NCBI GenBank assembly: GCA_965238175.1
Contig: CBDEGZ010000003.1
Coordinates: forward strand, 1,664,001 to 1,728,000
Direction of reading: 5' to 3'
Length of the DNA stretch: 64,000 nucleotides
Origin: Gammaproteobacteria bacterium
GTDB lineage: Bacteria > Pseudomonadota > Gammaproteobacteria > CAJXQU01
The notes beneath the pieces were generated by a model that did not search any database, was not told the DNA's origin, and saw only the letters and a list, made by a program, of their open reading frames with translations. Below are positions 21,014-41,089 of this stretch, piece after piece (within the stretch, counting starts at the first letter, position 1; the number at the start of each line of letters is the position of its first letter). Position numbers and translations under genes: made by a program.

Positions 21014-21017
21014 AATG

Positions 21018-21250: not shown

Positions 21251-21303
21251 TTTTTTGATAAACAGTAGAGATAGTAAGTATTGAGATTTCTGTTATGGAA
21301 TTT

Positions 21304-24584: not shown

Positions 24585-25168
24585 TTAGTTTATTTTCAAT
24601 ACCTAAAATCATTAGTTCTATAGCTACATTGTACGCGCTTTCGGTGTTGATTATATTGATATTTTTTAACATATCTGGCGTAGCAACATTAAGTGTGGCT
24701 TTTAAGGGTGCAGTTGTACTTGATTTCTTACTTATTGGTATCTCTTCTTTTGGATGGAGATGGCTCTGGAGAAAAATCCCTAAACTTAATGATTGGATTT
24801 ATCCTGATCTTAATGGAAAATGGGATGTAGATATTCAATGGAATTGGAACGATAATTCAGGTTCTAAACCTGCGTTGGCATATATCAAACAAAGTCTTTT
24901 CAATTTTAGTATTGAGCTTCAGTCTGATGTTTCAGAGTCAGAAACCTTAGTGGTTTTACCACATAAACAGCCAAAATCAGACCGCCCCGGACTTTACTAC
25001 ATCTATAGGAACCAGGGAAAAGCAGGCGCAGTTCCACGACAAGCGGCGCATATAGGAGCAGCAATTCTAAACCTCAATTCCGAGTCGAATGACTTGCTTC
25101 ATGGGAACTATTTTACTGATAGATCGACGAATGGACAGTACACCCTGCGTCGGAACAACGAAATATAA
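24581..25168 (+). CDS. Cap15-like 2TM + beta-barrel membrane effector (SMODS-associated 2TM-beta)
   Basis: Two TM helices, then WRWLW...PDLNGKW, IKQS, SES, LYYIYRN, H.GAA.L, L.GNYFTDR.T.G; TTG start overlaps the upstream TGA. Confidence 0.88.
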   Translation: MISLFSIPKIISSIATLYALSVLIILIFFNISGVATLSVAFKGAVVLDFLLIGISSFGWRWLWRKIPKLNDWIYPDLNGKWDVDIQWNWNDNSGSKPALAYIKQSLFNFSIELQSDVSESETLVVLPHKQPKSDRPGLYYIYRNQGKAGAVPRQAAHIGAAILNLNSESNDLLHGNYFTDRSTNGQYTLRRNNEI

Positions 25169-25551
25169 AAATTTTGTCTAGGTACAAATACCTTATCCAT
25201 TTTTAACTTGGTTAGCTGACGCTTCTCACCAAGCTCTTTCCCGTGTAACGAGCAGGACATCTTCTATATAAATAGGTTAGACGGGTAGCTTATGCGTTCG
25301 CCAAAAAAATCCAAATAACAACGTCGAAGAAGCCCAAGTTTTGATTGAAGAGTTCATATCACTTCTACCTGGATACATGGTTTCACCTTCGAAACTATAA
25401 AAACCTTAAAACAAATTTTAGTGAAGCCCTTGTTTTTTAGAAAAAGCACTACATATTGTATAATATGAAATATTATGACGAAACATATGGGATTAGAGAA
25501 ATGAACGAAATTCTAACTTATCTTATGTTTTTGACTAATTCATAGGTACTT

Positions 25552-26574
25552 ATGGCCAAACTAAATAGAGAGATATTTCAGATTCTTTCTTTGAGTGGCG
25601 GAGGTGTCCGGGGTTTATACACTATTACTGTACTTGCTGAGTTGGAGCAACATCTTGCTGATGAATTCTCCGACGAGAATTATTGGATTGGCAAGCATTT
25701 CGATCTTATCTGTGGAACGTCCATCGGCGGTATCTTAGCCTTGGGGTTAGCCAATGGACAAACTGCACGAGAGTTACTTGAAATACTCGATTTGAATAGG
25801 AAAGAGATTTTTCCTTTCAAATCTCGGCTAACAAAAATATTCAAGCGTCCATATCAATCACTTTATACAACCACTCCACTCCGTAAAGTTCTTCAAAAAG
25901 CTTATAAAGGTAAAATAATTGGAGATCTCAAGGCCCGGGTATTAGTACCAGCTGTGAACTACACAACTGGTTCTGTTCAGGTTTTCAAAACACCTCACCA
26001 TATAGATTTCCGGAACGACTGGAAACTTACTTTAGTCGATGTGGGCTTAGCAACTAGTGCAGCTCCTACTTTCTTCCCTATTCATACTATAAACGATAGT
26101 AGATACGTTGATGGTGGGTTAGCAGCAAACTCTCCAGCCTTAATGGGTTTCCATGAAGTACGGCAATTTCTTGGGGATTCTAAAACCCAAACTCGAGTAT
26201 TAGTTGTTGGGACAATGGGACAAGAAAAAACAGCAGACCATAATAAAAAACTAAATGCTGGATATGTGGGGGGGTGGTCTATGGGAAAAGCGTTAGTCGA
26301 ACTAACACTTTCTGCAAATGAGGGGTTGCATAATCAAATCCTGCGGCATCTGTTATCAGAAGACTCACTCCTCGAAATAGATGATTCAGCCACAAGTGAA
26401 CAATCTAAGAATTTAGACTTAGACAACGCTTCAGATGTGGCCGCTAGTGTCCTAAAGGGACGTGCTAAGGAAAGAGCTAAGAAGACTATTTCCGAGCCAA
26501 TTTTCAAAAATTTTATTAAGCATCAGGCTCCCAAACCAACTTTCTTTTATGGTTCGAATAAGACTACTCGATGA
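25552..26574 (+). CDS. capV: CBASS patatin-like phospholipase effector
   Basis: LSLSGGGVRG, GTSIG, ATSAAPTFF, DGG; first gene of the CBASS operon. Confidence 0.9.
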   Translation: MAKLNREIFQILSLSGGGVRGLYTITVLAELEQHLADEFSDENYWIGKHFDLICGTSIGGILALGLANGQTARELLEILDLNRKEIFPFKSRLTKIFKRPYQSLYTTTPLRKVLQKAYKGKIIGDLKARVLVPAVNYTTGSVQVFKTPHHIDFRNDWKLTLVDVGLATSAAPTFFPIHTINDSRYVDGGLAANSPALMGFHEVRQFLGDSKTQTRVLVVGTMGQEKTADHNKKLNAGYVGGWSMGKALVELTLSANEGLHNQILRHLLSEDSLLEIDDSATSEQSKNLDLDNASDVAASVLKGRAKERAKKTISEPIFKNFIKHQAPKPTFFYGSNKTTR

Positions 26575-26584
26575 GGACGACTCA

Positions 26585-27772
26585 ATGATTCAAAAAAACA
26601 AAATTACAAAGTTATTACACACAGGGTTTAATAACGAACATTTTTACGAAGAATTGAAGATAACTGATGCTGAGGATAAAGAGCTAAAAGTCTGTCGAAA
26701 TGTCATTCGTTCCTCTTTAAGAAGAGGCTTCAATGAATTAAAGAATAATGTGAATGTCTCTAACTCAGAGCAGTACCAGTATATATACAAACTTACACCA
26801 AAATTCTGGACTCAGGGAAGCTATGTTTACAAAACACTCAATAATCCGGCACACAGCCCACCGCAGCAGATTGATTTAGACGATGGCGTCTATTTTCCAA
26901 TGGATGTTGTTGAAAATAGTCCAGTTGCTGCTAAGAAGGTCTTACTCGAAATTATTGAAGACATTCTTCAACCGCTTTGTACTGTTAATGACTGGATGCT
27001 TATAATTAAATCCACTTGTTTTCGAATACTAGTAAGTAAGCGTATTCATATAGATATCCCCGTTTATGCAATTCCTCAAGATCGTTACCAAATTATGGAA
27101 GCGAAATTCCAAAATAGCAGGACTTTACTTGATGCTGATACATTTCTCGATGAGGAAATTTATCTAGATCCACACAAAATTTATCTTGCGATGCATAATG
27201 ATGATGAACACTGGAAAGCATCAGACCCAATGAAGCTTCAACGATGGTTCCTTGACGAGTGTTCAATTCATGGGCGTCTCAGGCGCGTATGCAGATATTT
27301 AAAGGCATGGAGAGATCATATATGGGAAAAAGGTGGTCCTTCATCAATTACTCTTATGGTAGTTGCAGCACAAACTTTTGATCAACATCTTAATGACACT
27401 GGGAAAGGTTTCCAGACTGACTGTCAAGCTTTATTAGCCATAGCACAAGCTATGCCGAGACAGTTTTCTTCTGAAATAATTAATCCAGCGGAAGAACAAG
27501 ACGAAGAAGTAATGTTCCCTAGAGGCAACTCAAATGAAGAGTTGAAAGAAATCCGAGCGAAGATTCAAGCTTTTAAAGATGAGGTTCAGCTAGCGCTTTG
27601 TGAAACAGAAAATAGTGACACTTGTGTTAAACAACTACGTGAAACATTTGGTCTTCGTATTCCTTATCGACCTGAGTGGGTAGAAAGTATACAAATAGGT
27701 GCCGCAATAAGAAGTCTACCGGCTAAGAAGCAAGAGTATCCGAAACCTCCAAAAACTTTGAAATCAGCGTAG
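26585..27772 (+). CDS. CBASS CD-NTase, DncV/CdnA-like
   Basis: PKFWTQGSYVYKTLN, QQIDLDDGVY, HIDIPVYAIP, SDP, RVCRYLKAWRD; ATG at 26585 after GAGGA. Confidence 0.92.
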   Translation: MIQKNKITKLLHTGFNNEHFYEELKITDAEDKELKVCRNVIRSSLRRGFNELKNNVNVSNSEQYQYIYKLTPKFWTQGSYVYKTLNNPAHSPPQQIDLDDGVYFPMDVVENSPVAAKKVLLEIIEDILQPLCTVNDWMLIIKSTCFRILVSKRIHIDIPVYAIPQDRYQIMEAKFQNSRTLLDADTFLDEEIYLDPHKIYLAMHNDDEHWKASDPMKLQRWFLDECSIHGRLRRVCRYLKAWRDHIWEKGGPSSITLMVVAAQTFDQHLNDTGKGFQTDCQALLAIAQAMPRQFSSEIINPAEEQDEEVMFPRGNSNEELKEIRAKIQAFKDEVQLALCETENSDTCVKQLRETFGLRIPYRPEWVESIQIGAAIRSLPAKKQEYPKPPKTLKSA

Positions 27773-27784
27773 CTTCAGTTTCGG

Positions 27785-29539
27785 TTGCTTCAAGCTAACT
27801 TATCAATAATTGCTGAAACCTTAGTTCAAGAAGGGTTTCAAAAAGTTCAAAGAGGTAATCTAAGTTTCGAGGGGGACATTAAAACGCATGATCTTCATTT
27901 TAGAGTTCGATTTAGCAAAATTGATCCGCTATTTTTAAGGCTCCCCACTGCAACACTTCTAAGTATACCTGACGAAATAGAACACAAATTACCTCACATA
28001 GAGCATAACAATAAGTTGTGTTATCTGGATAAATCAAATACCTACCTAGATCCTTTCGAGCCTAAAAGAACGACACTCATTATTGTTGGTGCTGTTAAAT
28101 CCTTATTAGATTCTTATTTTGAAGAAGCTCAAGTTTCTGACGATTTTGCTGATGAGTTTGGCTCTTATTGGGAAGGAAAATACAGATGTTGTTTGATTAC
28201 TAATCAACAGAGCGGTATATCAAACCTCATCAAGTCACGAGATCTTGAAGGAAAGAATCTATCGGAGTTTATTATCGTAGCTGACGATGAAGAGTTACAG
28301 TATTGGTGTTCTAGAAGAAGTTCTACAAAGTCAGATATGGGACCGTCAAATAAGGCAATTATTCTTTCAATAGAAGAGCCTTTGGTTGTCGAGCATAATG
28401 CTTGGCCACCTCAAGCTTGGCCTGAGTTTATAAAGTGGCTGAGACTTTGTCATCCTGAGACTGAGAGGAAATTACTACAAAATTTACTAACTACACTTAA
28501 AGATAGTAAAAATATCACCATAGCTCTACGCTCAGAGCGTGCAGGTCCATTTGGGGTTCACGTTCAATTTACTAAAAAACTTAGAATAATTGCAGAGCGT
28601 TTTAATTCGTCTAAGAACTCAAAAGCAAATAGGCGTGGAAGGAAGCCTCCCTGGCTCCATTTCCAAACAGTAATAAGTAATCAAAATTTAGTTTCAAGCT
28701 TCTCAAGGTTAGATATAGTTGATGTATCTGAAAAATTCGTATACGAGCGTAATTTACTCTCATCATCATTACTAAATAGGAAAATCGCAATATTAGGGTG
28801 CGGCACGGTAGGTAGTTTTGCCGCTAACTTGCTTGTAAAGGCTGGAGCTGGAACTGGACAATATGGAAAACTAGACTTATTCGATGAAGATTTACTGTCG
28901 AGTTCAAATTTAGGACGTCATTTATTAGGAGTGGATTACCTGTTTGAGAGAAAGGGGGCTGCATTAGCTGATTATCTAATTAAGAGTGCTATACATCAGA
29001 CAAAAATTGAAGGGTTCGAAAATTTTCAGTTATCTAACCTTTGCCGCGTATCGAAATATGATCTTGTGATTGATACTACTGGAGATGAAACATTTTGTAT
29101 GTTGTTAGCCTATGGTATGCACGAATTACGAAGACAAAATATGTGTCCGCCACCATTGTTACACGCCTGGGTAGATGCAAGCGGTCGTGCAGTAAGAGCG
29201 CTAATTGATGACAACTCTGGAGCATGTTTTCGTTGCTTGAAAGTGAAAAAAGGTGGAGGTTTGTTTGAAGAATTAATCGAACGGTACCCTCTTTTCAAAA
29301 ATCAGAAGGATGAAGGTATTGCACGCCTTACTCATTTCCGTTGTGGCGAGAGCTATATACCTTTCGCAGCAGGTGTATCTAGCTCGGTTGCTGGAATGGT
29401 TCAACAGATGGCTTTAGATGTATTTAAAGAAGACCCTGGGCCACGTTTCCGCCACCAGAGCTTTGACACTTGTATTCAAAATACTAAATCTAAAAGCCCA
29501 AATAAAGTTACAGGCTGTCCGTGTTGCAATCCAAATTAG
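27785..29539 (+). CDS. cap2: CBASS Cap2 (E2-E1/ThiF fusion)
   Basis: LPHIE...LCY E2-like region, EFGSYW, LGCGTVGS, SNLGRH, CFRC and C-terminal CPCC zinc ligands. Confidence 0.9.
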   Translation: MLQANLSIIAETLVQEGFQKVQRGNLSFEGDIKTHDLHFRVRFSKIDPLFLRLPTATLLSIPDEIEHKLPHIEHNNKLCYLDKSNTYLDPFEPKRTTLIIVGAVKSLLDSYFEEAQVSDDFADEFGSYWEGKYRCCLITNQQSGISNLIKSRDLEGKNLSEFIIVADDEELQYWCSRRSSTKSDMGPSNKAIILSIEEPLVVEHNAWPPQAWPEFIKWLRLCHPETERKLLQNLLTTLKDSKNITIALRSERAGPFGVHVQFTKKLRIIAERFNSSKNSKANRRGRKPPWLHFQTVISNQNLVSSFSRLDIVDVSEKFVYERNLLSSSLLNRKIAILGCGTVGSFAANLLVKAGAGTGQYGKLDLFDEDLLSSSNLGRHLLGVDYLFERKGAALADYLIKSAIHQTKIEGFENFQLSNLCRVSKYDLVIDTTGDETFCMLLAYGMHELRRQNMCPPPLLHAWVDASGRAVRALIDDNSGACFRCLKVKKGGGLFEELIERYPLFKNQKDEGIARLTHFRCGESYIPFAAGVSSSVAGMVQQMALDVFKEDPGPRFRHQSFDTCIQNTKSKSPNKVTGCPCCNPN

Positions 29540-30018
29540 ATTTCTTATCACTCCTCCCGTCAGGAGCATATCTTATTTTGCCTCATGAATTGATTGAGAA
29601 AATGCATAGATATAGACAACTTAATGAAGCTGATAGAGAAGCTGGCGGAATTCTGGTTGGAAGTTTGCGTAAAGATATTGATTCAGAGAGATCCGCTGAT
29701 TTGGAGCATATTGAAATTATAGATTTCACAACTCCAAGGCCAGCTGATAGAAGATCAAGGTTTGGCTTCTTAAGGAGGAATGAGCATCACTTACGACAAG
29801 TGCACCAAGTATGGAAACAATCAAAAATGCTCCAGACATATTTAGGGGAATGGCATACGCATGCAGAACCACACCCTAAACCATCGTTTGATGATCTAAA
29901 AGAATGGAAGAGGGTATTGAGAGATCGTAAATGTATTCTCATTATTATTGGGCAGGCTTCCGACTGGGTTGCTTTTTGGGATGGCCATCATCCATTCGAA
30001 CTAACTCAATTAAGATAA
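29521..30018 (+). CDS. cap3: CBASS Cap3 JAB/MPN isopeptidase
   Basis: EAGGILVG; YLGEWHTHAEPHPKPSFDD JAMM motif. Confidence 0.92.
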   Translation: MLQSKLDFLSLLPSGAYLILPHELIEKMHRYRQLNEADREAGGILVGSLRKDIDSERSADLEHIEIIDFTTPRPADRRSRFGFLRRNEHHLRQVHQVWKQSKMLQTYLGEWHTHAEPHPKPSFDDLKEWKRVLRDRKCILIIIGQASDWVAFWDGHHPFELTQLR

Positions 30019-30161
30019 AATTGTTAGTCATCAACGTGTAATGTTAAACATATCACCGAATTAAATTAGAGCTGCTAGCTTGCTCGTTTCAGCAGATATC
30101 CAACATTTTTCTTGTCAACCAGCTAGCAAATTGATACTGACATTGTTAGAAAGGAAGTGTC

Positions 30162-30356
30162 ATGGAGGATAAGTTCTCAAAAGAGAATAATGCTGAGCTA
30201 ACCAGTGTTATTGAAGATAGTGGTTTTCTGAGTCAATTCCCAGATCATGTAGCATGGACAGATCCCGGTGGGGCAGGTTTTATAAAACCGAATAAAAATG
30301 GAGAATCAAAATCTATCAAGCGCCTCGATTTACGGCAAATGCTCAAGTTAGGTTAG
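30162..30356 (+). CDS. Small hypothetical protein
   Basis: RBS AAAGGAAG before ATG; 64 aa; overlaps the stop of the convergent gene. Confidence 0.4.
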   Translation: MEDKFSKENNAELTSVIEDSGFLSQFPDHVAWTDPGGAGFIKPNKNGESKSIKRLDLRQMLKLG

Positions 30357-31320
30357 CCGCGAACAGCTTAGCTTTTGCTTCTTCTATAGATGTATCGTCT
30401 GGTCGATATTCATCCCAATAAGTGTTCCTAAGTTTTTTCTTACCTTTCATTGGGCTGTGTTTCAATGCCCACTGTAAATCACGGGTAAGGGTTTCCGCCC
30501 ATCGTTTATCAATCGCTCTTGTGTTTCTATTTCTAAATATCGTCCCCCAGTTTTCGTCAATGAAATAAGATGTTGCATTTCGCTCAGTTGCCCAATGTCC
30601 CATATTGGCAACAAAGACGTTGACGAGATTGGTTTCAAGTGCCAGTTTTTTATATAACGAGACATCCCAGACAGCTGGATCTGTGCCGTGCTCTTCGGCG
30701 TATATGAACGCGTAATAAAGCTGTAAGCCAACTTCACGAAAAACAAAACACTCAGTGAGAGTCCATTCGTAGGACATGTAGTTTGTCAGTAAACGGAAAG
30801 AGAGTTCAATATTATTTCTGAGTTGACCTTCCAAACTTTCATTGCTTCTCACCTGATTTTTTCGGTGCTCAAATTTTTCTTTATAAAAATCTAACCGCTC
30901 TTGTGAATCAGGTGGTGGTCCGAGAAGTAATAATGTTCCCGCATGAAAAAATAAGTGCGGATAGATTAACGCATTACTCACGACCTGATCTTGAAAGGCA
31001 TGGTAAATGTTCGAAATAGTCTTGGCGCTAATCCCCGTTCTCTTCTCAGTATTCTTAATCTCCTCTCCTTCGAAAAAAGACAACATCAGCAGCTCAAACT
31101 CTGAATCAGAAAGTTTTGTAAATTTGGAATATTTACTTTTTGATCGATAATTTTTGGGTTTTAAATTTGGCGCAATTTTCTTTTTCCATTTAGAAAAATT
31201 GCTGGTCGATAAATTATTCACACTGCAATACTCAGCCTGTGATAAGCCTGAAGTCTTCCATGAATTGATGTGCTGCTTCCAAAAATCGTTTTTTTCTTTT
31301 TTCACTAAACTACGTTTCAC
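30343..31320 (-). CDS. Protein with an N-terminal IS66 TnpA-like HTH and a second transposase-like HTH
   Basis: FWKQHINSWKTSGLSQAEYC...FSKWKKK; KLSDSEFELLMLSF...TGISAKTISNIY; no DDE motif recognised. Confidence 0.6.
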   Translation of the reverse strand: MKRSLVKKEKNDFWKQHINSWKTSGLSQAEYCSVNNLSTSNFSKWKKKIAPNLKPKNYRSKSKYSKFTKLSDSEFELLMLSFFEGEEIKNTEKRTGISAKTISNIYHAFQDQVVSNALIYPHLFFHAGTLLLLGPPPDSQERLDFYKEKFEHRKNQVRSNESLEGQLRNNIELSFRLLTNYMSYEWTLTECFVFREVGLQLYYAFIYAEEHGTDPAVWDVSLYKKLALETNLVNVFVANMGHWATERNATSYFIDENWGTIFRNRNTRAIDKRWAETLTRDLQWALKHSPMKGKKKLRNTYWDEYRPDDTSIEEAKAKLFAANLT

Positions 31321-31692
31321 CTCTTATTTCAGGCAATTTTAATTTCCATTTTTGAAAAGAAAACCCTTTTAAAATCATATGAATAAGGTTTCCGTTCTGA
31401 AAAATATTCTTCCACTCACGCTTTGACCGTGGGGTTGATGGAAGCTTACGCTGAGCGCCAATTCGGTGCTGTCCTATTTTGTACAACAGGTGAATCCAGT
31501 ACCCATTGAAACACTTTGTAGAATTTTATTTGAATAAAAATTTATTACTAACATTCGTAAAAAAGGAAAACAGTATGAGAACAAATATGCGTAATGCCAA
31601 CAATGAAACCGAGTATGTCAAATTGCAGCGAGATAAGAAAGTTGGTGCAAGTGCTGGGCATAAACTGAACGTCATATATGAGCAGGTGAACC

Positions 31693-32916
31693 ATGCTTAG
31701 TTTTACGCAAGACATATTTAAGAATGCACAAGACGAGGCGACAGATTCCTACACTGAATGTCAGCAACAAATTCAAGAAGTCGTTGTCACCCCGATTGTT
31801 GATAGTGACATTGAAGCTACCCGCACTGAAGCGACGATTAGTCAAATTGAAGCCCTTTCAGACAAGACGGCAGCGACCTTGGAAGGCACCTGTAGCGAGC
31901 AGCGTATCAAAGCACACAAAGAAACCCGTCTGTTCAAACATGTCAGAGCCATTGACCGCGAATGTCTTCATCCGGACGTACTTAAAACCATCTTTACCGT
32001 TGTTTTCTGCATTCTAGGCGAAGGGACAATCGCAGGCGCCATGTTTGCACTCGAAGGCAAAACCGGGCTTGTCGGCGGCTTTGCCTATGGTTTGTCTTTC
32101 GCGACTGTCAATGTGCTATCTGGGATGGCGATTGGTTTTTTCACCTTACGATACTGGCTTGATTATTATAATCGGATAGGCACATACCGGCTGAGAAGAG
32201 CCATCGCCTGTGCGTGTTTTTTTATTTTTACCGGTTTTCTTTGTGTGCTCATTTTTAGTGCTGCACGCGTCAGAGTAACTGGCTCCCATAGTAATATTTT
32301 TGACTTCGAAACAGTCAGCTTTTTAAGCACCTTCAATGATGCTCTGACCTTGGTCATCATTGCGCTTGGTGTATTGGGCAGTGTCGTTGCCATCTATAAA
32401 GGTTACAAAGGCCTGTCTGATCCAATTCCCGGTTTTTCAGAAAGTGACCTTTATCCAAAACGTACCGTCGATAGACCGGTGCAAGCCATGGTGGACAGTA
32501 CATTAGATCGGCTTGACGAGATGTACGACAACGCTGTCGATGACATTGAGTCTGCGATTGATGAGGCCGAAGATTTTCATGAGGCACAACATCAAAAAGC
32601 GACAACGCTGCAGAAAAAGCTCGTTTCACATAATGCGTTAATCACGCAACTCTCACTCAAAATAAAAAATCATACGAGTGCTGAAGGCTTTATCAATCAG
32701 TCCAAAGACACCTTGAGCTTGGACATATCACACCTGCATATTCCCATTGCTGAGACGTTAGCCCCGCTGACACAACACAGTCGTGCCTCACCCGATTACA
32801 ACACCTTACTGAGTCGATTACAGACGGCGTATGAAAGTGGCATTAACCACGTGCAAGCCGCACACGCCGCCTTTCTTAACAGTACCACTTTGTTTGAACA
32901 GGAGAATAAATCATGA
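31693..32916 (+). CDS. 4-TM membrane protein with coiled-coil termini
   Basis: Four hydrophobic segments; RBS AGGTG; ATGA overlap with the next gene. Confidence 0.8.
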   Translation: MLSFTQDIFKNAQDEATDSYTECQQQIQEVVVTPIVDSDIEATRTEATISQIEALSDKTAATLEGTCSEQRIKAHKETRLFKHVRAIDRECLHPDVLKTIFTVVFCILGEGTIAGAMFALEGKTGLVGGFAYGLSFATVNVLSGMAIGFFTLRYWLDYYNRIGTYRLRRAIACACFFIFTGFLCVLIFSAARVRVTGSHSNIFDFETVSFLSTFNDALTLVIIALGVLGSVVAIYKGYKGLSDPIPGFSESDLYPKRTVDRPVQAMVDSTLDRLDEMYDNAVDDIESAIDEAEDFHEAQHQKATTLQKKLVSHNALITQLSLKIKNHTSAEGFINQSKDTLSLDISHLHIPIAETLAPLTQHSRASPDYNTLLSRLQTAYESGINHVQAAHAAFLNSTTLFEQENKS

Positions 32917-33812
32917 ACAATATAAGACGACGAACGCGCTCAAATCGTCGACGCGCAAATCAATCTTCCAAGAATCGATACGGTCTCATTGCAGGTATTG
33001 TCCTTGTCCCAATCAGCGTACTGGGTCTTGGAAGCGTCTTATTAAAAAGTGAGCTTAAGAAAGAAAAAATAGACAGTGATACCTATTGTTATCAACAAGA
33101 GAGCCAGTATGAAGCGGCCTTCTTTATTGATTACAGTTTGACTAGATTTGCAAGTTCATCAACACAACGAAGTCTAACGAATTCTCTACTATCGGCTTAC
33201 CGATCTCTTCCCGCCAATGGCAAGCTATCGATTTTTAATACGGCAAAAAATAAAAATAGCGATATTGTCACGCCGGCATTCACCCTATGCAGGCCTGCAA
33301 AAAATGCCAAGGAACAAAAAGCGCTCAATGGGCTTGAAGACACAAACGAGTATGTCAAAAGTCGTTATCAGAAAGCCGAGTCTACCTTCACGGCGCATGT
33401 TGATACGTTAATTAAGGAAACCACCTCGAAAAAAGAGGCACTTAATTACGCGCCTTTACTCGAACGCTTTCAGGGGATCAGTCGTTTCTACAATGAAGGC
33501 TCACTGCAAAAATTATTCGTCTACTCACACGGTATTCAATACTCTGGATTTGCGGAATTTTGTTTCAAAAAAAATCACCTGCCACCATTTTCAATCTTTA
33601 AATCCAGTAACACTTACAACACGCTGAAACCAACACAAGCGTATGAGGGTGTCGAGGTTCATTTTCTGCTGGCAGAGTACGCTCGCCTTCCGATAAAGGA
33701 AGCGCCTTATTGTACCAACCACGAGATCCGTCAATTTTGGCCTGCCTATTTTGAACACAATGGCGCGAACGTCGAACTCTCCATTTTGAAGAGTTATCAA
33801 CGCGATGACTAA
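32913..33812 (+). CDS. Membrane-anchored protein with a degenerate vWA-like fold
   Basis: Basic N-terminus + TM; FFIDYS and LFVYSHG resemble degenerate MIDAS strands. Confidence 0.55.
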   Translation: MNNIRRRTRSNRRRANQSSKNRYGLIAGIVLVPISVLGLGSVLLKSELKKEKIDSDTYCYQQESQYEAAFFIDYSLTRFASSSTQRSLTNSLLSAYRSLPANGKLSIFNTAKNKNSDIVTPAFTLCRPAKNAKEQKALNGLEDTNEYVKSRYQKAESTFTAHVDTLIKETTSKKEALNYAPLLERFQGISRFYNEGSLQKLFVYSHGIQYSGFAEFCFKKNHLPPFSIFKSSNTYNTLKPTQAYEGVEVHFLLAEYARLPIKEAPYCTNHEIRQFWPAYFEHNGANVELSILKSYQRDD

Positions 33813-33826
33813 TTTAAATCAACACT

Positions 33827-34516
33827 TTGGAGGGTGATATGGATCTGCCATTTCGAATTCCTGACATCTTGCTGCCCATTCTTTTTGGGGCGCTCTTATG
33901 GTTTGGCTGTGTGTACTTTTTTATTACGCCGGCACTGACAGAAAGGGTGATCGATATTCATGTGAGAGAAGAATGTGAAGGTCATGCTGATCAGGTTTTT
34001 TGTGATTGCCTGTTTGAGCATTTTTGGGAGCGAGGCGCATCGATAAAAAGCACTTTATTTTTATCAACGTTTTCGCTCTCCGAGCCACGGATCAGTCTGT
34101 TTGATACTAAGCGTAATCCTTATGTGGAATATGTTTCCTATCAGATGAAAAAACCGAAACTAAGAACGGCATGCGACACCACAGGAAATGCTTCACTTCG
34201 TTTAGCCGAAAAACGCGCCACAGAAAAAATAGAAGAGAAACACAAAAAAGAACTGGCTGAGATTGAGAAACAACACAAAGAAAAAATGGCGCAAGAAAAA
34301 CTAAAAAACAGTGAGCATCAAAAAGTACTTGAAGTGGCAAACGCCGTAAAGAATTCCAAAGTAGGACAGTATTTACAAGAAGAAGCAGAGAGAGTGAAAA
34401 GAGCAAATGAGCTTCGTGAACGAACAACAGACGTTGGCCTGAATGTGTGGGAAAGCACCTTGGATTGGGTAGAAAAAAAGCGTCGTCATTATGAGAGGAG
34501 AAATAATTATGAGTAG
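33827..34516 (+). CDS. Hypothetical membrane-anchored coiled-coil protein
   Basis: N-terminal TM, C-x7-C-x-C motif, charged coiled coil. Confidence 0.7.
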   Translation: MEGDMDLPFRIPDILLPILFGALLWFGCVYFFITPALTERVIDIHVREECEGHADQVFCDCLFEHFWERGASIKSTLFLSTFSLSEPRISLFDTKRNPYVEYVSYQMKKPKLRTACDTTGNASLRLAEKRATEKIEEKHKKELAEIEKQHKEKMAQEKLKNSEHQKVLEVANAVKNSKVGQYLQEEAERVKRANELRERTTDVGLNVWESTLDWVEKKRRHYERRNNYE

Positions 34517-34928
34517 AGAACGCTTTTATTACAAAAGTGATTCGTACCTTGTCACATCAAGAATCTTTAAAACAAAGCGTCGTGGGTATCGAATGCCAGC
34601 TATTACGCAAGTGAGCTTACGCCGTACTCAGTTCTACCTGTTACTTCCCGTTCTTAGTGGCGTTATGAGTCTCGTTCTTTTTTTTGGAGATTTGCTCTAT
34701 CTGCATGAAATATTTTCAGGTGGGTTTGTGGCGTTAGTGCTGGGTGTTGCGTCATGGTCAGTGGGCACCATACATCTGAAGGGTTTTAACGTTGATGGCA
34801 TAGCAACAGTCGGACTGTATTGGAAAATGGCAGAACTTAACGAAGCTCTCAACCATGTTCTTTGGGAGTCGGAGATTCAACAGAAGGGCGTTGGCAACAG
34901 CGGAATGTCATCACGCTCAGATTATTAA
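34509..34928 (+). CDS. Hypothetical 2-TM protein
   Basis: MSRERF start after GAGGAG; two TM segments. Confidence 0.7.
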   Translation: MSRERFYYKSDSYLVTSRIFKTKRRGYRMPAITQVSLRRTQFYLLLPVLSGVMSLVLFFGDLLYLHEIFSGGFVALVLGVASWSVGTIHLKGFNVDGIATVGLYWKMAELNEALNHVLWESEIQQKGVGNSGMSSRSDY

Positions 34929-34940
34929 CAGGAGAAGACG

Positions 34941-35255
34941 ATGGAAAACAATAATGACTTAATGAAAGTTACCAACGGCACGATTGTCAAAATCAATCTG
35001 CATTTTTTACAAGCGGTCGTATTCGGTTTGATTGCTTGGTGGTGCTACCCCGAGAGACCCTTTGATATTGGTTGGGGATTGGTGTCGTTCATTTCGGTCT
35101 TGGTGGTGTTAGCGGCTATCGCCAGTGCCATCAAAGACATGACGAGACTCCACCAACGCGAAAAGACCATCAAGGCGTATTTACAACAAGGGGCGCAGCC
35201 CAAAGCCTCCACATTGGCATCGGATGATGCGTTAAAAAAAGCGGGGATGCGGTAA
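34941..35255 (+). CDS. 2-TM protein, possible detached membrane anchor of the coupling protein
   Basis: RBS AGGAGA; two TMs; ends STLASDDALKKAGM. Confidence 0.7.
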   Translation: MENNNDLMKVTNGTIVKINLHFLQAVVFGLIAWWCYPERPFDIGWGLVSFISVLVVLAAIASAIKDMTRLHQREKTIKAYLQQGAQPKASTLASDDALKKAGMR

Positions 35256-35800
35256 TGACGACTAAAAATAAAAAAAACTCTGACGTGCGCTTTGATGCTG
35301 AACCTTTATCAGAACGTGATGACCATTTTGAAAATGCTGAGAGGGAAGACAGTGACATTGATTGTTTAAATGACGATCTCTCTTTTGTGACGGACGCGAT
35401 TTATTCTGCGTTATTAGATCCTCCATCGAATGCTCTACGCAATCAGTATTGGTGTATTGAACCCCGTACTCTTTTGGATTTCCAGTTATCACAGCATACG
35501 AAGGAGGAAAAACCGAGTCAGTCAACCAAACGACTCCTTGGACTAACCTCGAAAGGTGAACCACTCTTTGCATCAAAGCCTACTCAGCGTTTGTTACTCA
35601 GTGCGGCTGGTGGTGGCAAGACAACCTGTGGTGCATTGCCATCATTTGTGACTGACACCCTTCATCGAGAGTTGTTAACCCACCCGTTTCTTGAGAACGA
35701 TAAAGAACGTCCCCGGCGTATTGAGACTGTCTCTAGAACTGCCTGTTCACCACAGCTATCAGCAGATGATCTATCAAACAAAGGAGATGTTGATCCATGA
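35255..35800 (+). CDS. Hypothetical protein containing a partial copy of the coupling-protein Walker A region
   Basis: TKRLLGLT...LLLSAAGGGKTTCGALP; stop/start overlaps on both sides. Confidence 0.55.
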   Translation: MTTKNKKNSDVRFDAEPLSERDDHFENAEREDSDIDCLNDDLSFVTDAIYSALLDPPSNALRNQYWCIEPRTLLDFQLSQHTKEEKPSQSTKRLLGLTSKGEPLFASKPTQRLLLSAAGGGKTTCGALPSFVTDTLHRELLTHPFLENDKERPRRIETVSRTACSPQLSADDLSNKGDVDP

Positions 35801-37191
35801 ATAATCCGACCAAACGAATCCTCGGACTGACCTTTGATGGTAAACCCATCTTCGCCCCCAAGCATGCTCATAGTCTGTTACTCAGTGCAGCCGGTGGCGG
35901 TAAGACCACCTGTGGCGCAATGCCCTGGTTGCAATCACTCATTGCCGATACGGATCGTACGATTCTCGTCACCGACAGCAAAGATTGTGAAATGGCGGCA
36001 CAGGCTATTGCGATGTGCCTTGAGGCGGGACGCAAAGTCGCCTACGTCGATAGTTTTGCCAGGCTAGGTAAAGACAATCCTTATCGCATTTCACCGAATC
36101 CGTTTGGTGGTGTGGTCAGTGCGTATCAAAAGAATAATGGCGAGTTGTTGTTTGCCACCGAGAATGCCTGTCATGCTCTGATCGAAGAACCCTCTGATGA
36201 TGCCAAAAATGAATATTGGCGTACTGAGCCTCGCGCCCTGATCGAATTTTGTTTGAACTCGTTGCTGGTGCGTAATATTCGGTTGGCCACACCGGGCGGT
36301 GTTTGGGCATTGCTGGCAAATCCTGAGATGCTACTTGAGGTTGCCGCTATCGAAGCGGAAGAAGGCGATGATGCCATGAAAGCACTCGCCAACCATGTGC
36401 TTGGTATGGCAAAAAACGAAGAGCACTACTCGCAACACCGTGCCGCTGCTACCAAAGCTTTACGTATCTATGCGTCAAATTCAGCCCTGCATCAATCCGG
36501 CGTCGGTGAAGTCATAACCCATGAGAAATTGATTGAGGAGAACTACGTCGTTTTCCTCGGTGGACCTGTTAAATACATGGAACGCCTTGGGGCTGATTAT
36601 GCATTGCAACTGCAAAGCTTTATGGAGGTAGTGTTATCGGGTGAAAGTGGTCCCGTCAGTTTTATTCTGGATGAATTTACCAATGCGCCTTTAAAGGCAT
36701 TGATCTCACAACTGACCACCATGCGCGGCTATGGTGGAACCTGCCACATGATAGCCCAATCCCGCTCAGAAATAGAACGCAAATACGGCAAAAAAGAAAC
36801 CCTGACCATTGATGAGAACTGTGTCATCAAGCAGTGGTTTGGTTTTTCATCGTTTGATGAAGCAGAAAAAGTCAGTCGTGCCATGGGTGAGACCTTGAGT
36901 GTCTCATCCAGCATTGGCGTGAACTCCGACAAGGTGGATTTTTCCGGGAACTACAGTACCGGAAAAGAGCGGCTTTACACGCCAGACATGTTGATGAGCC
37001 TGCCACCGGATGAACAAATTCTTTATGTGAAAGGTGTAGGGTTTATTCATTGTAAAGAAATCGTTCAGAACGAAATTGCACCGAGCTGTACTTACCTGAC
37101 GGATAACCCCATGGAAGGGGAACGCCTGCCACCTAATCCGAAAGTCACATTGCCATTTCCCCAAGAAAAAAATAAGGAGAGAAAATCATGA
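35797..37191 (+). CDS. VirD4/TraG-family type IV coupling protein, lacking N-terminal TMs
   Basis: AAGGGKTT Walker A, VTDSKDCE, FILDEFTN Walker B, MRGYG...IAQSRSEIERKYG, ERLYTPD. Confidence 0.88.
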   Translation: MNNPTKRILGLTFDGKPIFAPKHAHSLLLSAAGGGKTTCGAMPWLQSLIADTDRTILVTDSKDCEMAAQAIAMCLEAGRKVAYVDSFARLGKDNPYRISPNPFGGVVSAYQKNNGELLFATENACHALIEEPSDDAKNEYWRTEPRALIEFCLNSLLVRNIRLATPGGVWALLANPEMLLEVAAIEAEEGDDAMKALANHVLGMAKNEEHYSQHRAAATKALRIYASNSALHQSGVGEVITHEKLIEENYVVFLGGPVKYMERLGADYALQLQSFMEVVLSGESGPVSFILDEFTNAPLKALISQLTTMRGYGGTCHMIAQSRSEIERKYGKKETLTIDENCVIKQWFGFSSFDEAEKVSRAMGETLSVSSSIGVNSDKVDFSGNYSTGKERLYTPDMLMSLPPDEQILYVKGVGFIHCKEIVQNEIAPSCTYLTDNPMEGERLPPNPKVTLPFPQEKNKERKS

Positions 37192-37454
37192 AACCCGTTC
37201 GATTTTTACGCGTTAGTTATTTTATCTGGATACTAATCTTATTGGGTCTGTGGTTGTTCACAGTGACCGCTGGTTTGCCCCATTTCCGTTGGTCTTATGA
37301 CTGGCGAGATGATGGACAAGGGTACGATCCACATGCGGAACGTCATTACACGCGCTGCACCTATTTAGGGCCTTATGGGCAGTTCACCCTTCACCCGATG
37401 AATGGGCACTGTGCGTTTATCCGCTTTCAAAAGAAAGCCGGCAGTCAAGACTAA
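37188..37454 (+). CDS. Small membrane-anchored protein
   Basis: RBS AAGGAG; ATGA overlap; N-terminal TM; RCTYLGPYG...GHC. Confidence 0.7.
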   Translation: MKPVRFLRVSYFIWILILLGLWLFTVTAGLPHFRWSYDWRDDGQGYDPHAERHYTRCTYLGPYGQFTLHPMNGHCAFIRFQKKAGSQD

Positions 37455-37708
37455 TGCGTCTCGACCAGTTTAAGCCACGGCGCGGGATCGCGATGCTTAA
37501 GTCCGAACTTTTGCACAAGCTCCATCCGGGCAAAGCCTTTGAGGACGTTGAGCATGGTGTCAAGTCGAACACCGTCTTTCAATTGTTGATCGCAGTCACT
37601 CCGTTCCTGAATGTCCAGACCATACGGCTCAATGGCATACCAGAAGCCGTGATAGTCCATCGGTTCCAACCATTCTTCAACGGCTTGTCTGTCTTTAAAT
37701 GTTTTCAT
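37451..37708 (-). CDS. Small hypothetical protein
   Basis: RBS GGAGG directly upstream; 85 aa. Confidence 0.6.
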   Translation of the reverse strand: MKTFKDRQAVEEWLEPMDYHGFWYAIEPYGLDIQERSDCDQQLKDGVRLDTMLNVLKGFARMELVQKFGLKHRDPAPWLKLVETH

Positions 37709-37770
37709 ACCTCCAAACTAGCATTTTTGGATTCGCCACTTCAAGAAAAATCGACAGGAGGGTTTTCGTC

Positions 37771-38262
37771 ATGGAAATCAACTTCTCAAAAGAACTAAAA
37801 CAAACCTTTAACCTAGCCACTCTGCGAAAAAAAACAAAAGGCCTGAGGTCGCCTAATGATTGGGAAAAGGGTAACAAAATTATGAACCAGTACGAACGTG
37901 AGACGAAAAAACAAACGAAAGCGTATTACGCCGAGTATGACAACCGTGTCAGTAACGTTGTTAAACAATTAATTGATAAGGCGGGTGCCAAAAATCGTGA
38001 TTTTAAACACCGCTGGTTTGGTAATGATAATTTTGACAAAGAGAAGTTGACCCGACAAGCCCATAAAGTCGTGCAGCATGATCATCATCGCCGGATGACA
38101 CGTTTAGAAGAAAACGAGGCCATTGATCTTGGCAAACTCGTTGAAACCATCGAGCAACGCGACAAGTTACGTGAAAAACCACGAAAGGACTTTGAGAAAG
38201 CGGCAGATAGACGCAAAACACAAGAACACCCTCAAACACAGACTCGGCATCGTCGCCGGTAA
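37771..38262 (+). CDS. Hypothetical basic helical protein
   Basis: ATG after AGGAGG; Arg-rich C-terminus RHRRR. Confidence 0.75.
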   Translation: MEINFSKELKQTFNLATLRKKTKGLRSPNDWEKGNKIMNQYERETKKQTKAYYAEYDNRVSNVVKQLIDKAGAKNRDFKHRWFGNDNFDKEKLTRQAHKVVQHDHHRRMTRLEENEAIDLGKLVETIEQRDKLREKPRKDFEKAADRRKTQEHPQTQTRHRRR

Positions 38263-38292
38263 ATAGTTAATCAACATAGGAGAAGAAAGGTT

Positions 38293-38979
38293 ATGAATCA
38301 ACTCTACGATAATCAAGAACGAGAACGCGTTATTAAAGCCCGTGACAGTTATTCAGGAAGACTACTCACCAATAGTCAGTTTGATGAGGCGATGTCGATT
38401 ACCGGCATTATGGAGCGTGAGATCAAAAAAAACGGCACCTTCAAACAAAAGCTCGGTGATTACGCCCAAGCTTATGCCCGTACTGAAAAGTTTGATCACA
38501 TGAAAGCCGAAACCACCATTCGTGAGTTATTCACAGCTCGCACAGGGCAAACCATGAATCAGATGCGCGAAGCATTGATCAAACGCGAAGATACATTGCT
38601 AGGTCGAGAAGGCAAATCCTCACCTGATCAAAAAGCCGTTGAGCCTCAGATTTCAGATTCTGAAAAACAACGCGCTTACCATGCCGCCATGGATGTGGGA
38701 GGCATGATTGAGAAAGGCGACAAGATTGCTTTTTATCGTGCTTATACCCATCAATCATCAGAACTCGCACAAGAGTTAGGGATTACTGAAAACGGGGCAA
38801 AAGTGTTGATGAAAGACCAATTTGAGCAAATAGAAAAGAATGACATTTATAAATGGGGGAAGGAGTTGGAAGAAAAATACTATCGACCTCAAATCAAGGC
38901 AGAGCAGGAAGCGCGGGAAGCCAAGCGAGACAAAAACAATCCGCCTGAGATGAAACAGGCACCGTCTCGTGCAAGATAA
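38293..38979 (+). CDS. Hypothetical helical protein
   Basis: RBS AGGAG/AAAGG; 228 aa; basic C-terminus. Confidence 0.75.
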   Translation: MNQLYDNQERERVIKARDSYSGRLLTNSQFDEAMSITGIMEREIKKNGTFKQKLGDYAQAYARTEKFDHMKAETTIRELFTARTGQTMNQMREALIKREDTLLGREGKSSPDQKAVEPQISDSEKQRAYHAAMDVGGMIEKGDKIAFYRAYTHQSSELAQELGITENGAKVLMKDQFEQIEKNDIYKWGKELEEKYYRPQIKAEQEAREAKRDKNNPPEMKQAPSRAR

Positions 38980-39158
38980 GGAGAAAAAAGCCTACCGAAG
39001 ATAGCGCGAAGATATTAATTTCATCGTTAAAAACGCAATAATCTTACGCGCTATTTTCTTGCTGAAACTAGGAATATATGTCTATAGTGTTCTGCTTATG
39101 TTCTTGCATTGTGTGAGACAAAAAACGTAAGGAGGATTTGAGCAAAAAGGAGACAAGA

Positions 39159-39497
39159 ATGAAAGACAATAAGCAGGGTGAAGATATAAAAACGAGTGAG
39201 CGACTTCTTGAGAATAACGCGCTTGGCAAGAGTGATTATTTGCCTTCACTTGTGTTTGATCCTGAACAGTATGTGGATGATTTTGATGAGCTAGATTTAA
39301 GCAATAAACAACATATTGAGTTTCTTCAATCGCTTTGGCACATCATGTCCACCTTTGTTGATATAGGTTGGGGAGTTGAATCTGTCCAGTTATTTTTACC
39401 GGAATTATTTGAAAAAGCTGGGCAGGATTCTGACAAACTGTTAAGACTAGAAGAAATACAAACAATTAAACCATCTGAAGGAGGATATGATGAGTAG
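39159..39497 (+). CDS. Small acidic protein coupled to the recombinase
   Basis: RBS AAGGAG; overlaps the recombinase start. Confidence 0.7.
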   Translation: MKDNKQGEDIKTSERLLENNALGKSDYLPSLVFDPEQYVDDFDELDLSNKQHIEFLQSLWHIMSTFVDIGWGVESVQLFLPELFEKAGQDSDKLLRLEEIQTIKPSEGGYDE

Positions 39498-41049
39498 TCC
39501 GTCAAAAGCCCTTATTTATTGTAGAGTTTCAGACACGAAACAAAAGCTTGAAGGCTCGGGTCTTGAAAGCCAGGAATTTCGTTGTCGCCAATATGCTACC
39601 AGTCAATCTTATCAGGTTGAAAAAGTCTTTTTAGATGATATGTCTGGTGGTGGTGATTTTATGAAACGCCCCGGCATGGTGTCCTTGCTACATTATCTTA
39701 ATCAACACAATGAAACGAACTATTTTGTTATCTTTGATGATCTAAAAAGGTTAGCCAGAGATACCATGGCGCATTGGCAATTACGCCATGCCATGATGGA
39801 AGTTGGGGCGAAGGTAGAGTGTTTAAATTATAAGTTTGATGACACACCGGAAGGTGAGTTTGTGGAAACTTTATTTGCCGCGCAAGGCCAATTAGAGCGT
39901 AAGCAAATTGGTCGTCAAACCCGGCAAAAAACCAAAGCCAGGTTAGAAGCAGGCTTTCATGCCTTTATTGCACCGACTGGGTTTAAATATAACAAGACCA
40001 AAACGCAAGGTAAGCTATTGCAACGAGATGAACCGGTAGCTTCGGTGATCGCAGAAATGATGGAAGGTTTTGCTTCGGGTAGATTTCAAACCAAGATGGA
40101 AGCAAAGGTGTTTCTTGAAAATCACTCACTTTACCCGAAAACCGCTAGTTGCAAGATTGGTAATAATCAGATCAATAAAATCTTAATGAACCCACTTTAT
40201 GCAGGTTATATTCAATATAAGCCATGGGGCGTATCTTTGCGCAAAGGGCAACATGATGGCATGGTTAGTTATGAAACCTTTCTTAAAATCCAAGAGCGTT
40301 TAAAAGGTCGTGCGCATGCTCCGGCACGTAAAGATTTAAATGAAGAATTTCCCTTAAGAGGCAGTGTCATTTGCACGTGTGGAAATTGCTTAACTTCGGG
40401 TATGTCAAAAAGCCAGACTGGTAAATATTATCCTTATTATAATTGTCAGAAAAAAGGCTGTGACCATTACGGTAAATCCATTCGGCGTGATGTGATTGAG
40501 GGAGAATTTGAAACTTTACTTGAACAGCTTTCGCCAACTCAAAATGTGATAAAAACCGCGAATAAAATGTTTAAAGCCTTGTGGACTCATCGCGAAACTT
40601 CTCAACAAATTTATAAAAAAACATTAGAGAAACAAACCAAAGTCATTGAAAAGAAAATAAACGATTTACTGGATCGCATTGTTGAAGCTGAATCGTCCGT
40701 AGTGGTGAAAGCTTTTGAGAAAAAGATTCATGGGCTAGAAAATGACCAGCGTGTAATTGAAGAAAAAATGGGCCAATGTGGTCGTCCTTTACGACACTTT
40801 GATGACATGTATCGAACCTCGATGGTGTTTCTTGAGAACCCGCATAAAATATGGGCTTTTGGTGGGTTTGAAGACCGTCGAGCAGTGCTAAAATTGACCT
40901 TGGCAGAGCGATTGGTATATGAGCGAAATAAGGGGTATCGAACCCCTGATTTATCGTTACCTTTCAAGATGTTAGAGGGTGTTTCGGGGGGTAAAAATAA
41001 AATGGTGCCCAGAAGAGGACTTGAACCTCCACGACCCGAAGGTCACTAG
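39487..41049 (+). CDS. Large serine recombinase (integrase); last 47 nt overlap tRNA-Leu antisense
   Basis: IYCRVSDTKQ catalytic motif, DDLKRLARD, NPLYAG recombinase domain, CTCG...YYNCQKKGC zinc ribbon, coiled coil. Confidence 0.93.
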   Translation: MMSSPSKALIYCRVSDTKQKLEGSGLESQEFRCRQYATSQSYQVEKVFLDDMSGGGDFMKRPGMVSLLHYLNQHNETNYFVIFDDLKRLARDTMAHWQLRHAMMEVGAKVECLNYKFDDTPEGEFVETLFAAQGQLERKQIGRQTRQKTKARLEAGFHAFIAPTGFKYNKTKTQGKLLQRDEPVASVIAEMMEGFASGRFQTKMEAKVFLENHSLYPKTASCKIGNNQINKILMNPLYAGYIQYKPWGVSLRKGQHDGMVSYETFLKIQERLKGRAHAPARKDLNEEFPLRGSVICTCGNCLTSGMSKSQTGKYYPYYNCQKKGCDHYGKSIRRDVIEGEFETLLEQLSPTQNVIKTANKMFKALWTHRETSQQIYKKTLEKQTKVIEKKINDLLDRIVEAESSVVVKAFEKKIHGLENDQRVIEEKMGQCGRPLRHFDDMYRTSMVFLENPHKIWAFGGFEDRRAVLKLTLAERLVYERNKGYRTPDLSLPFKMLEGVSGGKNKMVPRRGLEPPRPEGH

Positions 41050-41089
41050 CACCTGAAGCTAGCGCGTCTACCAATTCCGCCACCTGGGC
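41003..41089 (-). tRNA. tRNA-Leu(CAG), integration target
   Basis: Reverse complement GCCCAGGTGGCGGAATTGGTAGACGCGCTAGCTTCAGGTGCTAG...GTTCAAGTCCTCTTCTGGGCACCA, long variable arm. Confidence 0.97.

Follow-up and report, generated by a model that had tools for sequence, protein, structure and literature searches.

A large serine recombinase gene that overlaps its own attachment (att) site is already known from Dehalococcoides, where the ssrA islands carry dsiB, the gene of a CcrB-like large serine recombinase (McMurdie et al. 2011; PMC3146451). Here we describe a comparable arrangement in a stretch of 64,000 nt from a gammaproteobacterium (assembly GCA_965238175.1, contig CBDEGZ010000003.1, positions 1,664,001 to 1,728,000), which is referred to as a whole as the window. 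The comparisons below identify a 30.3-kb island in the window, read here as an integrative mobilizable element, which a large serine recombinase has placed precisely at the CCA end of tRNA-Leu(CAG). The gene of this enzyme (int) runs antisense into the tRNA, and on excision its last codons would be replaced by a conserved segment from the other end of the island, which we call the tail.

The dsiB gene likewise encodes a serine recombinase (about 540 aa) at the edge of an island, and its 3' end always overlaps the att repeat and lies antisense in a tRNA-like gene (PMC3146451). DsiB targets the tmRNA gene of Chloroflexi at its T-loop, its direct repeat is longer, and a small recombinase, DsiA, is its partner (PMC3146451), whereas the family described here uses the CCA ends of many tRNAs in Proteobacteria; the two were compared by description. 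The authors of the dsiB study suggested that full function of the enzyme might be confined to the circular element (PMC3146451). Of the remaining members of the Dehalococcoides integration module (DsiA, RecF-like, ParB, Mom), no RecF-like, ParB or Mom protein was seen among the 26 island open reading frames (ORFs) scanned. Compared with dsiB, the tail of the present recombinase is conserved, is under purifying selection, is coupled to a mobC gene and is predicted to dock on the enzyme.

SSV1 provides a parallel among tyrosine enzymes, with attP in the integrase gene. For phage Mx8 (IntP/IntX), Tojo et al. are said to have described in 1996 an integrase that is altered by integration. An attP core within the integrase ORF is common to these two and to the present recombinase; the latter has serine recombinase domains only and, although it works like them, is not a member of their group. 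Mx8 Int is a tyrosine recombinase of unrelated chemistry and site architecture, and is not known to have a coiled-coil directionality device or a coupling to conjugation genes. In Tn916 the expression of transfer genes depends on circularization, since on excision the transfer genes come to lie next to the opposite end of the element, which bears a promoter. However, Tn916 has a tyrosine integrase and its joint is regarded as transcriptional only, whereas here the joint lies within an ORF and the downstream gene is translationally coupled.

Mycobacteriophages of clusters G, N and P have an immunity that depends on integration (Broussard et al. 2013, as presented in PMC9262239). It is similar in that attP lies inside a coding sequence, attB in a tRNA gene, and integration changes the C-terminus of a protein and hence the state of the element. 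In these phages it is the repressor gene that is split, the tail that it loses is a degradation tag of the ssrA-like kind, and integration relies on a tyrosine recombinase (PMC9262239). In the present island the serine integrase gene is the one that is split, and the tails inspected have no degradation-tag ending by eye. A further likeness concerns the recombination directionality factors (RDFs). These bind near the coiled-coil base of large serine integrases, and engineered fusions that attach an RDF to the integrase C-terminus via a flexible linker are functional (PMC11722253). The tail, too, is predicted to be a helix on a flexible linker at the integrase C-terminus that packs near the coiled-coil base. 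The fusions, however, are man-made, and in nature RDFs are separate proteins (PMC11722253).

In the open-access main texts searched, no paper besides PMC3146451 was found in which attP lies inside a serine integrase gene. New here are the targeting of tRNA CCA ends, the breadth of the family, the conserved and selected tail of the circular form, the coupling to mobC, the T-loop motif with its 5-bp offset and the docking prediction.

The attachment site within the recombinase gene

In its integrated form the recombinase is encoded at 39487..41049 (+ strand) and comprises 520 aa, ending in ...KNKMVPRRGLEPPRPEGH*. Pfam detected the Resolvase domain (PF00239, E 1e-23, residues 8-156) and the Recombinase domain (PF07508, E 1e-5, 26.1 bits, above the cut-off); Zn_ribbon_recom (PF13408, E 3.3e-4) stayed below its cut-off of 25.3 with 21.4 bits. 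Its sequence matches in the PDB were the TP901-1 integrase, the A118 integrase and a resolvase-family recombinase. Together with the structure model of a homologue, which resembles serine integrases, this bears out the class assignment made in an initial annotation of the window that had been based on the letters alone. The ORF overlaps tRNA-Leu(CAG), found intact by ARAGORN at 41003..41089 (- strand), by 47 nt. Its end is antisense to the 3' part of the tRNA, and the final 12 residues of the 520-aa protein (RRGLEPPRPEGH) are tRNA antisense.

The 8-bp core TGGTGCCC is present on the + strand of the window only at 10685 and 41003, 30,318 bp apart. The copy at 41003..41010 (+ strand) is the core of attR and the antisense of GGGCACCA, the final 8 nt of tRNA-Leu. 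The copy at 10685..10692 (+ strand) is the core of attL at the distal end, and its left flank can be aligned with the spacer of an island-free relative. Both copies have the same codon phase, with the core T in codon position 2: at the right end, codon 506 (ATG) of the recombinase ORF begins at 41002, and at the left end an ORF (10684..10881) opens with TTG GTG CCC. Joined at the core, the two frames give 508 + 62 codons and a stop, i.e. a protein of 570 aa, as computed from the lengths only. The coordinates, the frame, the core positions, the 30,318-bp distance and the sizes of 520 and 570 aa in the initial annotation were all correct in the sequence, and the junction, which it had taken to be in frame, has the same core phase at both ends. 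Its central claim that attP lies inside the recombinase's own last codons is further upheld by fused forms in relatives.

The 8-mer on its own is not significant: 0.95 matches are expected per window, and three or more occurred in 6 of 100 shuffles. The core pair owes its significance to comparison, namely with an island-free relative and with tail homologues, and not to the 8-mer count. Six species of the same genus were considered, among them G002, which has no island. In G002, gltX is followed by a 107-nt spacer and then directly by tRNA-Leu(cag). In a three-way alignment the end of the G002 spacer, ATACTAACTAAAAA, pairs with the attL flank of the window, ATATAAACTAAAGT; past the core, G002 tracks the attR side, which is the tRNA. 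Homology with G002 switches at the core, in line with the boundary proposed in the initial annotation. The base preceding TGG is A at attR in essentially all family members (read as Met) but is variable at attL (giving M, L or V). The crossover therefore occurs to the right of this base, inside the core. Its limits can be set only to -3 to +8 around the core because the G002 spacer has diverged, gltX being only 86% identical. The integrated mobilizable island is thus delimited as the core-to-core unit 10685..41002 (30,318 bp, strand not applicable), based on the core copies, the island-free G002, and the cargo and mobility genes.

A search with the recombinase returned 2809 homologues at E<=0.001 (of 7998 scored candidates), and the ends of the best 120 of them (50-100% identical, 416-888 aa) were compared. 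In 100 of these 120 the C-terminal peptide fits a tRNA-antisense pattern (e.g. MVPRRGLEPP, MVPRGGIEPPTRGFS). The other 20 are mostly cut short or have a motif beyond the search pattern used. The spacing from the PF of the LPFK motif to the core codon is 14 residues in 91 of the 120. In the window's own genome (G000), five further recombinase copies read into tRNA sequence. The copies at tRNA-Met, tRNA-Leu(caa), tRNA-Arg and tRNA-Lys show TTCAAG, 34 nt and then TGG, the antisense of CCA, and this 40-nt spacing (T of TTCAAG to T of TGG) was found in all five G000 copies that adjoin a called tRNA; a sixth copy runs into a truncated tRNA-Arg remnant. In the window, the same fixed 40 nt from TTCAAG, the FK codons of LPFK, to the core form the left arm of attP within the int coding sequence (40963..41002, + strand). 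Judging by these comparisons, the location of attP in int is a family-wide trait that extends across many tRNA targets.

A second island of G000 (C3:975560-994981) is located at tRNA-Met, measures 18,933 bp, has the 8-bp core TGGTGGGC and stands in tandem with a decayed older copy. When G000 was searched with the tail by tblastn, a second tail copy appeared at C3:976000 (E 1.5e-8), with the core TGGTGGGC 18,933 bp upstream of the tRNA-Met copy. At this junction a decayed recombinase remnant is followed by the tail in one frame (...LPFKVLRKYFTQKEVMVGIDVETSNQLFETLAEWDDYLQHHVPYFQEPQP*), and the stop overlaps the ATG of a MobC-like gene. Read in this way, the junction is an attP-type joint preserved in the tandem array. 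For the copy at tRNA-Leu(CAA), a 10-bp match 76.6 kb away, a candidate attL, opens a 61-codon frame that has neither tail similarity nor the T-loop motif.

Two other elements were observed in passing. About 12 kb past the window end (C3:1739860-1745100), G000 carries a related element with a coupling protein 97.8% identical to that of the island, and its recombinase reads into a truncated tRNA-Arg remnant beside IS-like (insertion sequence-like) sequence. At locus L039 (3905-6349) there is a mini-element with about 2.2 kb between a tail at an attP-type joint and a C-terminal recombinase fragment that reads into tRNA-Arg(ccg).

The arms of the sites share a motif, whose positions were counted from the T of TGG. 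The residues ETSN just past the core correspond to the DNA motif GAAAC-TTCGAACC, and TTCGAACC is the antisense of the tRNA T-loop/T-stem. Of 23 distinct attP right arms, 22 have their best match to it at position 23 (33 of 34 loci), and in all six tRNA attB arms it stands at position 18; tRNA-Leu(CAG), the right half of attB in the window, carries this T-loop antisense motif at 18-25, counted from the CCA end. For large serine integrases, the rule is that the motif of the second DNA-binding domain (DBD2) is 5 bp nearer the centre in attB than in attP (PMC11722253). The 5-bp offset between attB and attP found here agrees with this half-site rule. The recombinase appears to read TTCGAACC of the T-loop/T-stem with its second DNA-binding domain. 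DBD2 would then read a near-universal T-loop sequence and DBD1, the first such domain, the acceptor stem, which is identical within each attP/attB pair. Such a model would account for the ease with which, in one genome, the family switches between tRNAs for Leu, Met, Arg and Lys. The attP right arm of the window (10685..10720, + strand) contains, by eye, only CGAAC (10709-10713) where relatives have TTCGAACC at 23-30. A mirror-image GGTTCGAA motif was not found in the attP left arm; the best matches were 5/8 and at scattered positions in 9 of 10 arms.

The tail encoded beyond the core

The tail ORF (10684..10881, + strand) is in phase with int through the core and has no Pfam family. In the circle it would add 62 residues (EQGAK...KEPQP). 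As anticipated in the initial annotation, the frame is open through the core, so that excision would trade the 12 tRNA-antisense residues for this 62-residue tail. Tails are of two types, a short one of about 35 aa and a long one of about 65 aa, as in the window, with a repeated SN..L..W motif. A tail match was obtained in 8 of 400 genomes of the class. With a 35-position profile built from seven tails, a library of 1.84 billion representatives yielded 314 proteins at E<=0.001, 27 of them at E<=1e-10; the library is clustered at 50% identity, which probably hides fused forms.

Among the best 150 of these 314 proteins, 132 have the in-phase core pair [MLV][VA] (= xTG G[TC]N) at the expected distance, and in 51 the tail ORF starts exactly at the core. 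Three of the 18 misses for the core pair (P0133, P0223 and P0230) show it by eye. A scan of contigs confirmed 28 tail loci in Gamma-, Alpha- and Betaproteobacteria and in a metagenome-assembled genome of the Pseudobdellovibrionaceae. The core xTGG[TC]G, in phase, of the tRNA-CCA-end type and with the frame open into the tail, was seen at 34 of 35 loci.

Recombinase sequence fused to the tail was found in at least 12 sequences. Fused proteins are P0098 (full length, 553 aa, with a divergent tail), P0272 (378 aa, ended by the contig edge), P0271, P0229, P0183, P0264, P0136 and P0244; fused junctions are present at loci L015/L024, L021, L025 and L039. A search for longer fused proteins gave 10 proteins, with recombinase domains on record only for P0272.

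The tail block LFxTLxxWNxYLxxHxPYFx (20 codons, 28 distinct DNAs) differs at synonymous and nonsynonymous sites with pS 0.87 and pN 0.23. Third positions vary in 19 of the 20 codons and second positions in 12. That pS exceeds pN, together with the variation at third positions, indicates that the tail segment is translated in this frame. Conservation at the protein level, which mattered to the initial annotation, is thus found, as is fusion to recombinases elsewhere. Its suggestion that the tail could be a degron is unsupported; no ssrA-like end was seen by eye among the tails inspected, a systematic search not having been made.

One tail variant, AHFEGETSNRLFQTLEEWN[DE]FLKK[YF]APFFKEVA, is shared, nearly identical in protein and DNA, by loci L031, L035-L037, L039, L041, L042 and L044-L048. 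The genomes concerned are labelled Gammaproteobacteria, Alphaproteobacteria, Micavibrio, Kordiimonas, Halioxenophilus and Thiodiazotropha. Near-identity across classes suggests recent spread of one element lineage.

For structure prediction the homologue P0272 was used; P0098 was dropped as a target, as its divergent tail was misaligned. In the AlphaFold model of P0272 (mean predicted local distance difference test (pLDDT) 89.5, predicted template modelling score (pTM) 0.71), the recombinase and zinc-ribbon domains are seen together with long paired helices, a helical hairpin at 190-268, and a post-hairpin helical bundle. At E<=0.001 the model has 25 PDB matches, every one of them a large serine integrase (SPbeta, A118/LI, Bxb1, phiC31). 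The tail (residues 344-378) was then modelled as a separate chain against residues 1-337 of the same protein. The complex scored 0.69, versus 0.02 for the best control. In calibration, 58 of 80 solved complexes scored this high, as did 2 of 110 mismatched pairs, counts that apply only roughly here, as our own alignments were used. Runs share at least 49% of their contacts, and the pLDDT of the partner is at least 43. The contacts in the model are between residues 200-207 (the start of the hairpin), 279-308 and 328-333 of P0272 and residues 351-373 of the tail. The tail helix is therefore predicted to dock near the coiled-coil base, and the model supports binding. Such docking would suit the idea of a built-in directionality factor, also raised in the initial annotation, as a lead, not as proof. 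The structural side of that annotation is right and applies to the family as a whole; its functional side, by which the integration state would set activity, stability or directionality, is a plausible proposal.

Mobility genes and cargo of the island

In the window, the TGA of the tail overlaps the ATG (ATGA) of a MobC/NikA-like relaxosome accessory gene (10878..11405, + strand; Pfam NikA-like 4e-9, MobC 8e-7). An overlap of 4 or 1 nt between the tail stop and a mobC homologue (PFSLRLT.EER..L....G...GAYIR) recurs in 16 of 19 related loci. The next gene (11402..13879, + strand) encodes a relaxase-helicase of 825 aa with a MobA/VirD2 nuclease and AAA_30. At the opposite end of the island, from 31693 to 41049, + strand genes overlap or almost abut each other. 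This string includes a type IV coupling protein (T4CP; TraG/VirD4-like, 35797..37191, + strand, Pfam T4SS-DNA_transf 6e-25) and closes with orf119 and int. orf119 (39138..39497, + strand) encodes 119 aa without a Pfam family and overlaps the start of int by 11 nt; by tblastn, each of the four full-length int copies in the window's genome has a homologue of it upstream. Its product is a candidate accessory or directionality factor.

A simple scan of the region from the chromosomal flank to mobC (10300-11500) found no promoter-like site on the + strand. As gltX is divergent, no read-in is expected from its side. We infer that only the excised circle would allow mobC and the relaxase to be expressed, or to be translated through coupling.

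With an integrase, a MobC/NikA-like protein, a relaxase and a T4CP present, the island is taken to be an integrative mobilizable element. Among the 26 larger island ORFs scanned with Pfam, 12 of which have no Pfam family, neither a VirB4-type nor a pore protein was detected. Directly past the relaxase end lies a transposase gene (13938..14972, - strand; Pfam HTH_29, rve_3 and rve), which, from its HTH and rve domains and its place beside the relaxase end, is taken to belong to an insertion sequence. A second relaxase-like fragment at 15458-15660 is 47-62% identical to relaxase residues 578-645.

The island further contains an ArdA antirestriction gene (19657-20310) and the gene of a small resolvase-type serine recombinase of 198 aa (23453-24049), which does not adjoin int. 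A defence operon resembling cyclic oligonucleotide-based antiphage signalling systems (CBASS) occupies 25552..30018 (+ strand), with genes for a patatin-like phospholipase, a DncV-like nucleotidyltransferase and an E1/E2 protein (ThiF + Prok-E2_B) and a small ORF (29521-30018). Elsewhere in the window (5999-6593) there is a tandem array of 36-bp units in at least 12 copies, 62-94% identical. The units are rich in GAA, GAT and ATA and, read by themselves, would give an acidic 12-residue repeat.

Proposed mechanism and alternatives

On balance, the locus is probably best explained as a tRNA-end island with attP in the last codons of its recombinase, in which integration and excision swap both the isoform of the enzyme and the operon arrangement, and in which directionality is linked to the tail. 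The left arm of attP is the coding sequence from LPFK to Met506, crossover takes place in TGGTGCCC, and the right arm opens the conserved tail. Integration would have two consequences. The tail would be exchanged for arbitrary tRNA-antisense residues, giving Int-520, and int would lose its link to the tail, to the MobC-like gene and to the relaxase, all of which would now lie at the far end of the island. Excision would restore Int-570 and create a single gene string from the T4CP through orf119, int-tail and mobC to the relaxase.

As the circle can make only the long form and the chromosome only the short one, different isoforms would necessarily act in integration and in excision. The tail, a flexible linker with the amphipathic helix LFxTLxxWNxYL, would fold back onto the helices at the coiled-coil base, as modelled. 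The enzyme of the circle, which must integrate, and that of the chromosome, which must excise, could then differ in the control of directionality, e.g. in their response to the co-transcribed orf119 product. More tentatively, and with clear doubt, the tail may be a natural covalent directionality module which, for example, blinds the circle enzyme to orf119 so that it can only integrate, while the same junction licenses relaxosome synthesis after excision.

A number of points speak against this explanation or weaken it. In this organism, the circle and Int-570 are predictions from the sequence. If the tail acted like a classical RDF, it would bias the circle enzyme against integration, the opposite of what the recipient needs, so that a tail effect may be of either sign. 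The attP right arm of the window is the single exception to the motif rule, its best scripted match being 6/8 at position 17. P0272, on which the structure model was built, has the short tail and not the long tail of the window; in its model the linker (334-353) has a pLDDT <50 and the helix (354-369) one of 62-80. Of the complex runs, two scored 0.69 and one 0.02, and the fold of the partner was uncertain in the last. P0098, with its divergent tail, was the only full-length fused protein found. In 72,556 plasmid records (PLSDB) the tail was absent when that of the window served as the query; with P0271 as the query, the recombinase part alone matched, in 7 records, and no tail. The relaxase was probably truncated at its C-terminus by the insertion sequence, and as it looks truncated, this copy of the island may no longer be mobilizable. 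Finally, the core codon is ATG in 96 of 132 tail ORFs, and a free 35-aa peptide may start there.

The last point leads to an alternative that we consider improbable, though worth weighing: the tail is an independent small gene of the mob module, encoding a protein or leader of about 35-65 aa that starts at the core ATG and feeds ribosomes into mobC, and the fusion is a by-product of the place of attP with no effect on recombination. The frequency of ATG at the core would fit this, as would the 51 of the 150 listed tail ORFs that begin exactly there. However, the base before TGG at attL is chromosomal and variable, giving L or V in 36 of 132 and CTG in L030, and there is no conserved ribosome-binding site or promoter upstream of the tail. 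Tail, mobC and relaxase travel together, with the start/stop overlap at 16 of 19 loci, and the tail was matched in only 8 of 400 class genomes as against 2809 recombinase homologues, counted in a different database, so it may belong to the mob module. Yet at every attP-type junction the int frame enters the tail without a stop, so that the long Int would be made in any case, and the docking model places the tail helix on the recombinase itself, with controls at <=0.02.

A read-through without protein meaning is much less probable still. The segment past the core would then be conserved as DNA only, as an attP arm, an oriT or a ribosome-binding site of mobC, and the open frame would be incidental. 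Both ends of the tail have such an explanation: the ETSN residues are accounted for by GAAAC-TTCGAACC, and at the other end (K/Q)EPQP overlaps with signals of mobC, GGAG and ATG. McMurdie et al. also judged the ssrA-antisense part of dsiB unlikely to be functional (PMC3146451). Between the two DNA signals, however, lie the 20 codons whose pS of 0.87 and pN of 0.23, with third positions varying in 19 of 20 and second positions in 12, contradict it, and the frame is open and in phase at 34 of 35 loci. Conservation as DNA only was thus accepted for the ETSN and EPQP ends and rejected for the LFxTLxxWNxYL block.

That the 8-bp repeat is a chance match and the island ends lie elsewhere is hardly credible and was rejected on the G002 junction and the three-way alignment: a stretch of 64 kb should contain roughly one TGGTGCCC by chance and the G002 spacer has diverged, but gltX is joined directly to tRNA-Leu in G002, the flank ATA.TAAACTAAA can be aligned up to the core and the tRNA past it, in other genomes, too, a tail homologue starts at the core, and the second G000 island at tRNA-Met has the same layout (8-bp core, 18,933 bp).

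For annotation, the proposed att site within int means that 100 of the 120 homologues listed end in a peptide that is set by the insertion site and not by the recombinase gene, and that tail ORFs are called as orphan proteins of 35-130 aa. Large serine integrases are leading tools for the one-way insertion of large DNA. To our knowledge, the natural setting of their direction is known only for separate RDF proteins. If it is true that, throughout a widespread natural family, the state of integration decides which of two isoforms of the recombinase is made, this would be a new kind of directionality control and would offer a finished blueprint for integrases that limit themselves. The family is also at odds with a statement of 2014 by which no serine integrase was known to target tRNA genes (PMC4383910). 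With a CBASS-like operon as cargo, these recombinases may be a vehicle by which defence systems are moved.

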